Both the position numbers and the translations under genes were made by a program. Under the pieces are notes generated by a model. That model had not been told where the DNA came from and made no database searches. It saw only the letters and a list, made by a program, of their open reading frames with translations. Shown here in pieces: positions 20,220-31,555 of a stretch of 64,000 nucleotides of DNA; position 1 is the stretch's first letter; every line of letters starts with the position of its first letter. Source of the DNA: a virus (Duplodnaviria > Caudoviricetes); the IMG/VR virus record IMGVR_UViG_3300022602_000026. One strand, 5' to 3'.

Positions 20220-20310
20220 GGAAGGCCAATCCAAATGGCGATGGAACCGGTCTTGAAAACCGTCGAGCGTTAATAACGCCTTTAGAGTTCGACTCTCTAG
20301 CCTTCCGCCA
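20220..20310 (+). tRNA. tRNA-Ser(TGA)
   Basis: Cloverleaf, loop CTTGAAA, long variable arm, CCA. Confidence 0.9.
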
Positions 20311-21238: not shown

Positions 21239-21327
21239 GGGGGCTAATCCACACGGGAGACTGTAAATCTCTTGCCATAATATGTGTGGTGGCTGGCAGT
21301 TAGGTTCGATTCCTTTAGTCCCCACCA
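21239..21327 (+). tRNA. Atypical tRNA-Tyr(GTA)-like RNA lacking a D-arm
   Basis: Acceptor GGGGGCT/AGTCCCC + ACCA, loop CTGTAAA, T-loop TTCGATT, only 10 nt in D-arm position. Confidence 0.65.
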
Positions 21328-21338
21328 TTTGTAGTTGT

Positions 21339-21492
21339 TATTGATAAGTGTTTGAGATGAACATGGGGTATCGTGGACTGATCATCCGCTATGCGGGCCT
21401 AACTGGCGTGGAACAGGTCCTGACATAACCCGCCATACGCTGTTGCCGGAAACGATCCGACGCATAAATTGGCACTCAAGCACTTTTCAATA
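21339..21492 (+). ncRNA. Stem-closed structured RNA abutting tRNA-Arg
   Basis: 18-bp closing stem, inner tatgcg/cgcata and tggcg/cgcca helices. Confidence 0.6.
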
Positions 21493-23342: not shown

Positions 23343-23425
23343 TCCACGGGAGCCGCCGGGTGTGGCAGCGGACTGTTAATCCGTGTCGAAAGACTAGCTA
23401 GGTTCGAGCCCTAGCCGTGGAGCCA
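23343..23425 (+). tRNA. tRNA-Asn(GTT), long variable arm
   Basis: Loop CTGTTAA, GTC-GAAA-GAC arm. Confidence 0.9.
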
Positions 23426-24563: not shown

Positions 24564-25634
24564 ATGAAAAGAATAGTTTGGCCATTAAAGATTTATGGTG
24601 ACAAAGATTTATCGGGCAAAATTTGCACGATCCCTTTTAATACTGTAGCAATATCAATTGAAGGTGATGTTCGTATATGTATGTGTACTGATTGGATGCT
24701 ATCCACAGTTGGCAACATTTATGAAAATTCCTTACAAGATATTTTAGTTAATGCAAGATCCACAACAATAAGACAATCTATTGTTGATGGTAATTTTAGA
24801 TACTGTGACGAAACCAGATGCGGAGTATTGCTTAATTCAGACACAGGATTAATTACAGTAACGCAAGAAGATCAATTATTAAAAAATTTACTTGATCCTG
24901 CAAATTTTACAATACCATCTGAGATATGGATAAGTGGTGACATGACCTGTAACCTTTCTTGTCCATCTTGTAGAAAAAGCATAATTCGAGAAACAGAAGC
25001 ACAACAACGACAAAATCAAGAGCTATTAGATAATTTAGTTCAACATATTTTTCCTGGCTCCAGCGATAAAGAAATTACCTTGTACATGAGCGCAACTGCT
25101 GAAGTATTTGCTAGTTCACTGTTACTGGGTTTGTTGGAAAAATTGCCCATTGATCGATACCCTAACATTAGATTAAGTCTACAAACAAACGGGTTATTGG
25201 CCGAACGTAGATGGTCTAGGATCCAACATTTAGAAAAGAATATACATCGTATCACAGTTACCATAGATAGTTGTACCAAACAAAACTATGAACTATTGAG
25301 ACGAGGTGGTAAATTTGAAGATATGGAAAGTAGCTTAGAGTTTTTTTCAAAGAAAAAACGCGAGCTAGGGTTTCAGTATTATATTAGATCAGTAACGCAA
25401 CAAACAAATTGCAACGAGATCGAACAATTTTATGATTATTGCAAACAACACGACGCTGATCGAGTTGAATACTGTAAGTTGGCCAATTGGGGAACTTTCA
25501 CCGAGCAAGAATTTTTAGCACACGATGTGCTTGATAACGCACACCAACAGTACCAATCAACAATTGATACTTTTAATCGACTCAAAGAAAAATACAACGA
25601 TGTATTTTTTATAGGCTTCGCAAGTATGGCGTAA
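24564..25634 (+). CDS. Radical SAM protein with N-terminal SPASM-like domain
   Basis: TCNLSCPSC, LQTNG, ITVTIDS; stop lies inside tRNA-Leu. Confidence 0.9.
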   Translation: MKRIVWPLKIYGDKDLSGKICTIPFNTVAISIEGDVRICMCTDWMLSTVGNIYENSLQDILVNARSTTIRQSIVDGNFRYCDETRCGVLLNSDTGLITVTQEDQLLKNLLDPANFTIPSEIWISGDMTCNLSCPSCRKSIIRETEAQQRQNQELLDNLVQHIFPGSSDKEITLYMSATAEVFASSLLLGLLEKLPIDRYPNIRLSLQTNGLLAERRWSRIQHLEKNIHRITVTIDSCTKQNYELLRRGGKFEDMESSLEFFSKKKRELGFQYYIRSVTQQTNCNEIEQFYDYCKQHDADRVEYCKLANWGTFTEQEFLAHDVLDNAHQQYQSTIDTFNRLKEKYNDVFFIGFASMA

Positions 25635-26691: not shown

Positions 26692-26769
26692 GCCCCCGTG
26701 GACAAATTGGCAAAGTCATTTCTCTCAAAAGGAAAAGTTTTCTCCGTTCGACTCGGAGCGGGGGTACCA
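26692..26769 (+). tRNA. tRNA-Leu(CAA), short variable region
   Basis: Loop CTCAAAA, 6-nt variable region. Confidence 0.85.
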
Positions 26770-29689: not shown

Positions 29690-31555
29690 ATGAAAAATAT
29701 ATACTTAATACAACCCAATGAGATGCAGGAGTTCCAAGGTAAAAAAATATTTTGGTTGCCCTACACCTCGGGGGTGTTGTGGGCCTATGCACTACAGTTT
29801 CCCGAAGTAAGCAATAATTATTGTTTACAGGATTTGATGTTCCATAGAGAAAAAATCAGTTCGGTGGTTGATCGCGTATTGCCCAATTCTATTTTTGCAT
29901 TCAGTTGTTATATATGGAATTGGGAATACAATAAAAAATTAGCACAAGCAATCAAAGAACGATATCCCGACTCGTATATTGTTTTCGGTGGGCCGCAGGT
30001 GAGTGACCGTCCATTGGAAACTGACTTTTTTAAAAAACACAAATACGTTGATACTATTGTACTAGGCGAAGGTGAAGAATCATTTACACGACTATTGATA
30101 GACTATGTTGATGGTAAAAAAACAAAGATATACAATAGTAAACGTTTAGAAAATGTCAACACTCCCAGTCCATACCAAGTTGGTGTATTTGATAAAATAA
30201 TTGCCGACAATCCCGAGTTCCACTGGAATGGAGTACTAGAAACAAATAGAGGATGTCCGTTTGCTTGTACCTTCTGTGACTGGGGAGGACTAACATACAG
30301 CAAAGTTAAACAACTGCCTATTGATCGTGTTGATCACGATATTGAATGGTTTGGTATAAATCAAATCGAATACATAGCTGTAGCCGATGCAAACTTTGGA
30401 ATTTTCAAAGATCGAGATTTAAAGATTGCTAAAAAGATCACAGACGTTAGATTAAAGTATGGATATCCGGCAAATTTAAATATCAACTTTAATAAAAATC
30501 AAACCTCGGACATAGTAAACATAGTAAAGGTACTTGCCGAAAGCGGACTTAACCGCGGATTAACTATTAGTTTTCAAAGTCTTGATGACGATGTACTAGA
30601 AGCTATCAAGCGCAAGAACATGGCCATTAGCAAAAGCGAAGAAATATTTCGACTGCTCGAAGAGTCCAATCTAACTCACTATTCGGAAGTTATTTGTCCT
30701 TTGCCTTTAGAAACATACGATACTTGGCGAGCCGGTTTAATCAAATTAATAACTGCCGGACAACATCAATGTATTGATGCTTTCTTTACTGCTGTATTAG
30801 AAAACAGTGAAATGAATCAACCCGAATATAGACGCAAATACGATATTAAGTCTATAGAACGAGAATACATATTCTTCTTTCACTTTGGCGCCGAAGACGT
30901 ATTAACCGAAGAAGCCACAGAAAAAATAAACTTAATTGTCTCGACCAGTACAATGAGTCTTGATGATCATATACGCAGTTGGATGTATACTTGGCTTATT
31001 ACAAATTTCCACATATATGGTTGGACACAGATCTATGCTAGATTTTTAAATGCACACAACATCAAGTATGATGTGTTCTACGATTGTCTCTTAGATGAAA
31101 TTGCAAATCAACGCATGGGATTTTTAAGCGAACAATATCTAGAAGTAAAACGCATGATAACATTGTTACTAACCGAAGGTAGTAACTTAAAGGATGTGGG
31201 ACTCAGTCCTGATGTAATTAGATTTAGTCAACGATATTTCCATCGTAATCGAAAATTGGTTGAGCAGTTGTTGGCCGACTATGTCAAAACTCAATTTGAT
31301 CCAGAGAACTTTGTTAATCTACATCGGTACCAAATCAATTTTGTATCTCACATGGATCAAGGCGAATCAAGACACGAGGTACTGGACCTGGGAATAAAGG
31401 ACACAATAACAAAAGGTGTGCCCTACCAAGAAAACCTAAAGGAATGCACAGTAGCACCAGTGGGAACTTATTCCAGCCAAGAAGAATTTTTAGCTAAAAC
31501 AATCATGCATAGAAGAAATGGTTTTGGCAAAAATCTAATACTTGACAAAGAATAA
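29690..31555 (+). CDS. Cobalamin-binding radical SAM protein
   Basis: FSCYIWN, VFGGPQ, GEGEE, ETNRGCPFACTFCDWG. Confidence 0.92.
   Translation: MKNIYLIQPNEMQEFQGKKIFWLPYTSGVLWAYALQFPEVSNNYCLQDLMFHREKISSVVDRVLPNSIFAFSCYIWNWEYNKKLAQAIKERYPDSYIVFGGPQVSDRPLETDFFKKHKYVDTIVLGEGEESFTRLLIDYVDGKKTKIYNSKRLENVNTPSPYQVGVFDKIIADNPEFHWNGVLETNRGCPFACTFCDWGGLTYSKVKQLPIDRVDHDIEWFGINQIEYIAVADANFGIFKDRDLKIAKKITDVRLKYGYPANLNINFNKNQTSDIVNIVKVLAESGLNRGLTISFQSLDDDVLEAIKRKNMAISKSEEIFRLLEESNLTHYSEVICPLPLETYDTWRAGLIKLITAGQHQCIDAFFTAVLENSEMNQPEYRRKYDIKSIEREYIFFFHFGAEDVLTEEATEKINLIVSTSTMSLDDHIRSWMYTWLITNFHIYGWTQIYARFLNAHNIKYDVFYDCLLDEIANQRMGFLSEQYLEVKRMITLLLTEGSNLKDVGLSPDVIRFSQRYFHRNRKLVEQLLADYVKTQFDPENFVNLHRYQINFVSHMDQGESRHEVLDLGIKDTITKGVPYQENLKECTVAPVGTYSSQEEFLAKTIMHRRNGFGKNLILDKE

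Follow-up and report, generated by a model that had tools for sequence, protein, structure and literature searches.

An 89-nt RNA encoded at 21239-21327 on the plus strand of the window, meaning the whole 64,000-nucleotide stretch of viral DNA analysed here, is interpreted as a working elongator tRNA-Tyr (anticodon GUA) with a rewired, non-cloverleaf core. A probability of about 0.8 is assigned to this interpretation, in which expression, processing and charging are inferred from sequence alone. No D hairpin is present, and the nucleotides at its position are predicted to pair with a strand in the loop of an enlarged variable arm, producing a pseudoknot. To our knowledge, all cytoplasmic, bacterial and phage tRNAs are regarded as cloverleaves, and exceptions are known only among the shrunken tRNAs of mitochondria. 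If the interpretation is true, a core with different wiring is tolerated by bacterial RNase P, TyrRS, EF-Tu and the ribosome, and the tRNA sets of phages and arrays have been reported without Tyr because ARAGORN and Rfam miss the gene. It would also connect tRNA architecture, in a testable way, with the tRNA-centred conflict between phages and bacterial defences, and would supply engineers with a natural tRNA scaffold of distinct structure.

Location and detection

By direct reading, the element lies 6 nt downstream of a tRNA-Glu gene, in a cluster where ARAGORN called 29 tRNA genes covering 19 amino acids between 20.2 and 33.0 kb, with Tyr alone absent. Rfam backed 26 of the 29 calls; those below its tRNA threshold, Ser(TGA) at 20220-20310 (91 nt), Asn(GTT) at 23343-23425 (83 nt) and Leu(CAA) at 26692-26769 (78 nt), may also be unusual. 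No ARAGORN call was obtained over 21239-21327, mitochondrial modes included, and the tRNA cloverleaf model RF00005 gave nothing there at its gathering threshold (29 bits), nor at E ≤ 10. The sole Rfam match at a permissive threshold was to tRNA-Sec (RF01852; 22.5 bits, E = 0.028), in an alignment with a long acceptor stem and a short T stem; membership of RF01852 is failed both by the score, which is below the gathering score of 47, and by the anticodon, which is GUA rather than UCA. A pattern search for a second Tyr-type anticodon loop followed by a T loop found none in the 64-kb window, the rest of the phage being unseen. An earlier note on this DNA had described the element as the only Tyr decoder in the window, which is borne out by the absence of Tyr from the ARAGORN calls together with the pattern search, and 21239-21327 is very probably the only tyrosine tRNA of the cluster.

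Secondary structure

General tRNA features are present throughout the element (discriminator and CCA, 5-bp anticodon stem, 7-nt loop with U33, UUCGAUU T loop), and in the window copy every helix is made of standard pairs, apart from a U.U in the T stem. The 5′ strand of the acceptor stem, GGGGGCUA (nt 1-8, 21239-21246), is paired with 21316-21323, with 8/8 standard pairs: the first seven join GGGGGCU (21239-21245) to AGUCCCC (21317-21323), and the eighth is A8-U78 (21246 with 21316). The 3′ strand, UAGUCCCC, is followed by A73 and an encoded CCA (21324-21327), the whole segment spanning 21316-21327. The anticodon arm, GGAGA/CUGUAAA/UCUCU, occupies 21256-21272, with the anticodon GUA at 21263-21265, and the T arm (21301-21315) consists of a short stem (U.U, A-U, G-C, G-C) and the UUCGAUU loop.

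Between the acceptor and anticodon stems, the earlier note had seen ten nucleotides in place of a D arm, and these are indeed found as AAUCCACACG (21246-21255). Beyond the acceptor stem they comprise a two-nucleotide connector, A9 U10 (21247-21248), the strand CCACAC (nt 11-16, 21249-21254), and G17 (21255). The connector is mostly UU in the family (U in 73/88 members at position 9 and in 79/88 at position 10), and no pairing partner was found for either position among 88 distinct sequences. The exact complement of CCACAC, also noted earlier, is confirmed as GUGUGG (nt 46-51, 21284-21289), which lies within the 16-nt loop of the variable-arm stem UGCCA/UGGCA; the helix formed by these two strands is referred to below as the D-replacement helix. 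The 5′ strand of the variable-arm stem, UGCCA (21273-21277), starts immediately 3′ of the anticodon stem, and is connected to GUGUGG by an A/U-rich linker, UAAUAU (21278-21283; 3-10 nt in the family), the last base of which, U45 (21283), can pair with G17, joining the D-replacement helix to the anticodon stem. Directly 3′ of the helix are a conserved UGG and then C55 (21290-21293), a candidate counterpart of D-loop G18 G19 whose role is inferred, followed by the 3′ strand of the variable-arm stem, UGGCA (21294-21298), which closes a stem that crosses the D-replacement helix and so makes a pseudoknot.

The same wiring was found in all relatives analysed: 9 nt separate the 8-bp acceptor stem from the anticodon stem in 88/88 members, no D hairpin carrying G18 G19 is present, and the partner strand of the D-position nucleotides lies 3′ of the anticodon arm in all 88. 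The RNA fails the D-hairpin criterion that defines the cloverleaf family, and most probably still works as a tRNA-Tyr.

Covariation analysis

Relatives were collected by scanning IMG/VR with two patterns, (1) a Tyr anticodon arm plus a T loop, and (2) a Tyr anticodon loop, 30-40 nt, and a T loop. Since the Tyr anticodon loop and the T-loop consensus were fixed in both patterns, the invariance of these two features is partly by construction. Scoring was performed with a nested-helix covariance model, R1, and a model-guided alignment; family members scored 66.9-99.7 bits, the best other match 48.6 bits, and canonical class II tRNA-Tyr 30-41 bits. A structural parser identified 49 distinct members, all sharing one fixed plan, with member sizes of 85-94 nt across the family.

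The D-replacement helix appeared in a first comparison as the compensatory variants CCACAC/GTGTGG, CTCTAC/GTAGAG, CCCTAC/GTAGGG and CTCTGC/GCAGAG, and a further variant in the family is CCCGUC/GACGGG. Among 50 distinct viral sequences, 99.7% of cells in this helix were paired and 6/6 pairs were changed on both sides, and double-sided changes at 6/6 pairs were also found in the combined viral and bacterial set (88 distinct sequences). Covariation in related phages had been named in the earlier note as a check on the CCACAC/GUGUGG pairing, and the check was passed. The anticodon stem covaried at 5/5 pairs and the acceptor stem at 7/8 pairs in the viral set (n = 50 distinct), and the same held in the combined set (n = 88). 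For the nested structure as a whole, 95.8% of cells were paired in the 88 distinct sequences, compared with 69.0% after shuffling (0/500 shuffles reached the observed value) and 40-59% in a control with slid partners; double-sided changes were seen at 21/24 pairs, with a covariation score of 0.717 versus 0.180.

The variable-arm stem was assessed using an anchored-helix script with mismatched-partner controls, since linker lengths differ between subfamilies and the model alignment slipped register at the 3′ strand. Of the 88 distinct sequences, 86 have an anchored helix with 4 bp or more, in 18 core types (including GCC/GGC, GGC/GCC, GUC/GAC, GCU/AGC, GAC/GUC, ACC/GGU and CGCG/CGCG), compared with only 29% of cases in the mismatched-segment control. 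The stem is 4-6 bp long and stands at the usual class II position, with its loop engaged in the pseudoknot, and the gap between it and the T stem is 1-2 nt, matching ordinary class II tRNAs. A GG lies within 4 nt 3′ of the D-replacement helix in 88/88 sequences (TGG in 77, CGG in 6), and none of the 45 distinct viral variable regions lacks it, though the viral search patterns did not demand it.

Pair 8:78 covaries and is never unpaired (GC 64, UG 10, UA 9, AU 3, CG 2; n = 88), and the acceptor stem is for this reason taken as 8 bp; the alternative of a 7/5 branch, whose T stem would contain two U.U pairs, is ruled out by the same pair. Within the T stem, pair 64:76 covaries, and pair 63:77 is standard in 68/88 sequences (GU 38, GC 20, AU 7, other 20), with U.U in the subfamily of the window. 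The 8-bp acceptor stem and the short four-layer T stem together are a predicted 8/4 acceptor branch of 12 layers. The T stem had been called weak in the earlier note, and this holds insofar as the window copy has only 3 bp plus the U.U, but the stem is better described as the short one of an 8/4 branch, in which the acceptor stem has 8 bp.

Nucleotides 17 and 45 were paired in 74% of the viral set (GU 25, UA 7, AU 5, other 13) and in only 51% of the combined set, and this position appears to resemble the 26:44 layer of ordinary tRNAs, which is often non-Watson-Crick. With 17:45 paired, the anticodon stem and the D-replacement helix can therefore stack continuously, giving about 12 layers.

Since the D-replacement helix and the crossing variable-arm stem both covary, both helices of the pseudoknot are supported, and the earlier suggestion that the pairing replaces the D arm in a novel architecture gains the backing of compensatory changes that keep each of them. 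Covariation does not show that the two helices coexist in one molecule. A tRNA in which they alternate, between a form with a variable-arm hairpin and one with a long anticodon-branch helix, for example in regulated processing or charging, would also preserve each helix without simultaneous formation; each nested half is stable alone in the window copy (-22.8 and -25.1 kcal/mol), and some members have linkers of only 3 nt ahead of the helix strand and 0 nt behind the GG. Such a switch is nonetheless considered quite improbable, with linker lengths falling in narrow ranges that fit a compact pseudoknot, no tRNA-like core arising from either single form, and no conserved alternative pairing partner. 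When added to the scaffold of the window copy, the variable-arm stem contributes -5.6 kcal/mol and the D-replacement helix -7.9 kcal/mol.

In the pseudoknotted arrangement that is preferred here, the D-replacement helix would take the place of the D stem, stacked on the anticodon stem through the 17:45 layer. The strand that follows the acceptor stem would enter the anticodon stem directly, at the topological place of the 3′ strand of a D stem, while the variable-loop strand and the GG would stand at that of the D-stem 5′ strand and D-loop G18 G19; half of the D arm would in effect be shifted behind the anticodon arm. The two-nucleotide connector would extend to the helix top, close to the acceptor/T-stem junction, and the GG may dock on the T loop as G18 G19 do, keeping the L shape, a step that is uncertain, with 0-3 nt from the GG to the variable-arm stem and no 3D model.

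Occurrence in viruses and bacteria

The family layout was found in more than 80 viral contigs, several of them above 300 kb, and in 38 bacterial contigs, and these span a wide range of G+C content. With the anticodon loop unconstrained, scanning returned 28 further viral contigs, scoring 90-99 bits except for one cut by the contig end, and CTGTAAA was present in 27/27 distinct sequences, all from one subfamily. A scan of one genome per bacterial species gave 39 hits, all at 75-92 bits, of which about 30 are in Planctomycetota, the hits including the complete chromosome of Lacipirellula limnantheis. The Planctomycetota copies sit in dense arrays, for example 27 tRNAs in 4 kb without another Tyr; such chromosomal arrays (in L220, L202, L233 and L212) have 22-27 genes per approximately 4 kb and carry the pseudoknotted Tyr, and Neorhodopirellula pilleata has two of this kind on one contig. 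A canonical tRNA-Tyr with a short variable arm was found elsewhere in 5/5 bacterial genomes tested, and the element was accordingly rejected as the housekeeping tRNA-Tyr of Planctomycetota. Because the element lies in dense arrays and the tested bacterial genomes have a canonical tRNA-Tyr elsewhere, the design is inferred to be a feature of accessory tRNA arrays, in phages and on bacterial chromosomes, and not of a housekeeping tRNA.

The window derives from a jumbo phage, whose large terminase shares 53% identity with its counterparts in Pseudomonas phage PA5oct, Sinorhizobium phage Phosso and Agrobacterium phage Atu_ph07. No family member was found in the terminase relatives PA5oct, Phosso, Atu_ph07 and 121Q, and among such relatives only Vibrio phage 2.275.O has a related RNA. 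Similarity searches of cultured phages with megablast and blastn brought up no member of the family. Candidate sites without annotation in Xanthomonas phage RTH11, Limnohabitans phage DC31, Aeromonas phage CC2 and Citrobacter phage CF1 were rejected, being ordinary tRNA genes (30-36 bits), most of them for Tyr.

When syntenic relatives were sought with proteins as anchors, a single record was obtained, G001, a 33.6-kb viral fragment that is the nearest relative among the records compared and has the gene order of the window; the element is absent there, and between Glu and Arg(ACG) a tRNA-Met(CAT) replaces the element and its following 165 nt. The presence of tRNA-Met at the same position in a close relative would suit a decayed tRNA-Tyr pseudogene, in which the D arm was recently lost and the complementarity is coincidental, as would rejection by tRNA finders and a nested minimum-free-energy fold no better than that of shuffled sequence (-28.2 kcal/mol for the element alone, z = -1.12, with the anticodon stem broken). 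The fold energy is uninformative, because nested folding cannot represent a pseudoknot. The pseudogene reading, which the earlier note had also left standing, is effectively excluded by covariation and the conserved layout, with compensatory changes in every helix, spacing that is strictly conserved, and one design shared by viral and bacterial contigs that differ widely in G+C content. Relatives with a normal D arm would, by the earlier note, have spoken for recent decay; those found share the layout without a D hairpin.

Tyrosine identity and decoding

The tyrosine identity elements of bacteria are A73, G1-C72, and G34 U35 (PMC9976931), and this set is met by 21239-21327. A73 and G1-C72 are each present in 88/88 members and were forced by neither search pattern, and CCA is encoded in 45/88. 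By canonical count, the window and three further family loci (L048, L091, L130) each have 19 specificities, with Tyr alone missing, and a canonical Tyr is absent from 23/26 family loci with at least 10 tRNAs; the remaining three (L095, L127, L133) have a canonical Tyr beside the pseudoknotted gene.

A look-alike of tRNA-Tyr that acts outside translation, as a decoy or sponge for a nuclease targeting tRNA-Tyr or for another tRNA-binding factor, with host tRNA-Tyr carrying out the decoding, was also put forward in the earlier note as a nuclease decoy and is not excluded. It would account for the canonical tRNA-Tyr genes that accompany the element in those three loci and in the five bacterial genomes tested, its core resembles no tRNA known to function on bacterial ribosomes, and Septu and retron-Eco7 are known to target tRNA-Tyr, with a decoy role of phage tRNA-Tyr having been discussed (PMC13096335). 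A bait for a nuclease of the variable loop would, however, be expected to retain a canonical variable loop and not to remodel it. The features for charging and EF-Tu binding are conserved (A73, G1-C72, a 12-layer acceptor branch, and CCA where the array encodes CCA), and in four arrays the element provides for the sole amino acid not otherwise covered. Retention of the Tyr identity elements, and the completion by this gene of tRNA sets that lack nothing else, make a decoy less likely than a decoding tRNA, and on the whole unlikely. As a decoding tRNA-Tyr, the RNA would be cut from the array transcript, charged by host TyrRS via A73, G1-C72 and G34 U35, and used to read UAY codons for the phage, all three steps being inferred.

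Related and neighbouring RNAs and genes

The related RNA of Vibrio phage 2.275.O (MG592671.1:169943-170031, equal to L166:3944-4032) is unannotated and has the same rewired layout (65.5 bits), with a Trp anticodon (CUCCAAA), A1-U72, G73 and CCA. Its helices are weaker, with 4/6 pairs in the D-replacement helix and a variable-arm stem of about 3 bp; no other tRNA-like candidate for Trp exists in the record, and the Tyr gene of this phage is canonical. A second RNA with the same layout, at L018:12531-12621 (-), has a UAU anticodon, a CUCGAUU T loop, an 8-bp acceptor stem, a CCCAC/GUGGG helix, AGG and a UCCAG/CUGGA stem (48.6 bits), on a contig that has a canonical tRNA-Tyr. On a contig of a Leptospiraceae MAG, a divergent second copy beside the Tyr copy, at L197:1607-1700 (-), has kept a CUCUCG/CGGGAG helix followed by UGG and has no regular anticodon arm (47.2 bits).

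Long tRNAs of 91-92 nt with a UAU anticodon, called tRNA-Ile(tat) by ARAGORN, recur in contigs with the pseudoknotted Tyr (L013:3303-3394, L016:5170-5261, L017:3932-4023, L019:10039-10129, L031:3198-3289). They have a D arm and a long variable arm, and were rejected as examples of the pseudoknotted fold since they are cloverleaves with a D arm. Two further genes, L014:11151-11238 and L020:11443-11530, were returned by ARAGORN as 'tRNA-???' with a two-base anticodon, and stand at the place of tRNA-Ala(TGC) in the window.

In the window itself, the gap between the Tyr gene and tRNA-Arg(ACG) is filled by a structured RNA at 21339-21492 (+), with a folding energy of -52.9 kcal/mol (z = -2.77) and a closing stem of about 18 bp; the single tRNA-Met(CAT) of G001 stands for both this RNA and the Tyr gene. 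Radical-SAM genes lie among the tRNAs at 24564-25634 and 29690-31555, with a SPASM domain in one and a B12-binding domain in the other, and the gene at 24564-25634 is 100% identical in G001.

Variable-arm nucleases

Septu and retron-Eco7 PtuAB defend against phages by cleaving tRNA-Tyr within its variable arm; the tRNA-Tyr of T5 is reportedly resistant owing to its distinctive variable loop, and T6 escapes by amplification of its tRNA-Tyr gene (PMC13096335, PMC11555353). With the variable loop buried in a pseudoknot, the RNA described here might by analogy be protected from defence nucleases that cut tRNA-Tyr at that site. Nuclease escape as the selective reason for the design is a tentative suggestion, held at somewhat less than even odds, as it draws on E. 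coli systems only and nothing links these to the present hosts. A broader proposal, that the family is a new structural class of elongator tRNA with a D helix rebuilt by a pseudoknot, which arose in phage or mobile arrays as a nuclease-resistant tRNA-Tyr still charged by host TyrRS, and whose chassis was occasionally re-used for Trp (Vibrio phage 2.275.O) and UAU (L018), is possible but, taken in full, doubtful.

Comparison with known systems

Full-text literature searches found no paper describing a pseudoknotted, D-armless tRNA-Tyr design, and neither phages nor pseudoknots figure in a 2020 review of non-canonical tRNAs. In papers on tRNA arrays, long arrays have been noted in Planctomycetes, and a survey of such arrays placed Tyr among the rarest isotypes (PMC4758250), a rarity that fits detectors missing the pseudoknotted gene.

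Canonical class II tRNA-Tyr(GUA) (RF00005; phage copies in L025 and L034, Planctomycetota housekeeping copies in L244 and L236) shares with the pseudoknotted RNA the GUA within CUGUAAA, G1-C72, A73, the T-loop consensus, the start of the variable-arm stem (UGCC/UGGC), and the setting in a tRNA array. The pseudoknotted RNA differs in having no D hairpin, an 8/4 instead of a 7/5 acceptor branch, and an enlarged variable loop that pairs with the strand following the acceptor stem.

The (8/4) and (9/3) tRNAs described by Mukai et al. in 2017, among them allo-tRNAs, tRNA-Sec-like species, and phage (8/4) tRNA-Ser and tRNA-His, are all cloverleaves, with no tyrosine species and no pseudoknot reported (PMC5389517). 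Like the pseudoknotted RNA, they have a 12-layer branch, a 6-bp helix at the D position and a long variable arm, and they occur in phage clusters; the (8/4) criterion is met by the RNA described here, with an 8-bp acceptor stem and a four-layer T stem (in the window, three standard T-stem pairs plus the U.U). Whereas the (8/4) and (9/3) tRNAs have a local D hairpin with a long stem and a small loop, the pseudoknotted RNA draws the 3′ strand of the corresponding helix from the variable loop.

The D-armless tRNAs of mitochondria (mammalian mt-tRNA-Ser(AGY), nematode) are shrunken, with a short unpaired connector and adapted partner proteins (PMC7609411), whereas the pseudoknotted RNA is full-size, has a covarying 6-7-bp helix, and is found in phage and bacterial arrays. 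The tRNA-like structures of plant RNA viruses (TYMV TLS-Val, BMV TLS-Tyr) are likewise viral, build a tRNA-like shape with a pseudoknot and keep identity elements, but in these the pseudoknot forms the acceptor arm at the genomic 3′ end and no decoding takes place (PMC9976931). The pseudoknotted RNA has instead an ordinary acceptor helix, a putative pseudoknot in the core, and a gene within a tRNA array, and on its predicted structure it is most aptly classed as a structurally new tRNA variant.
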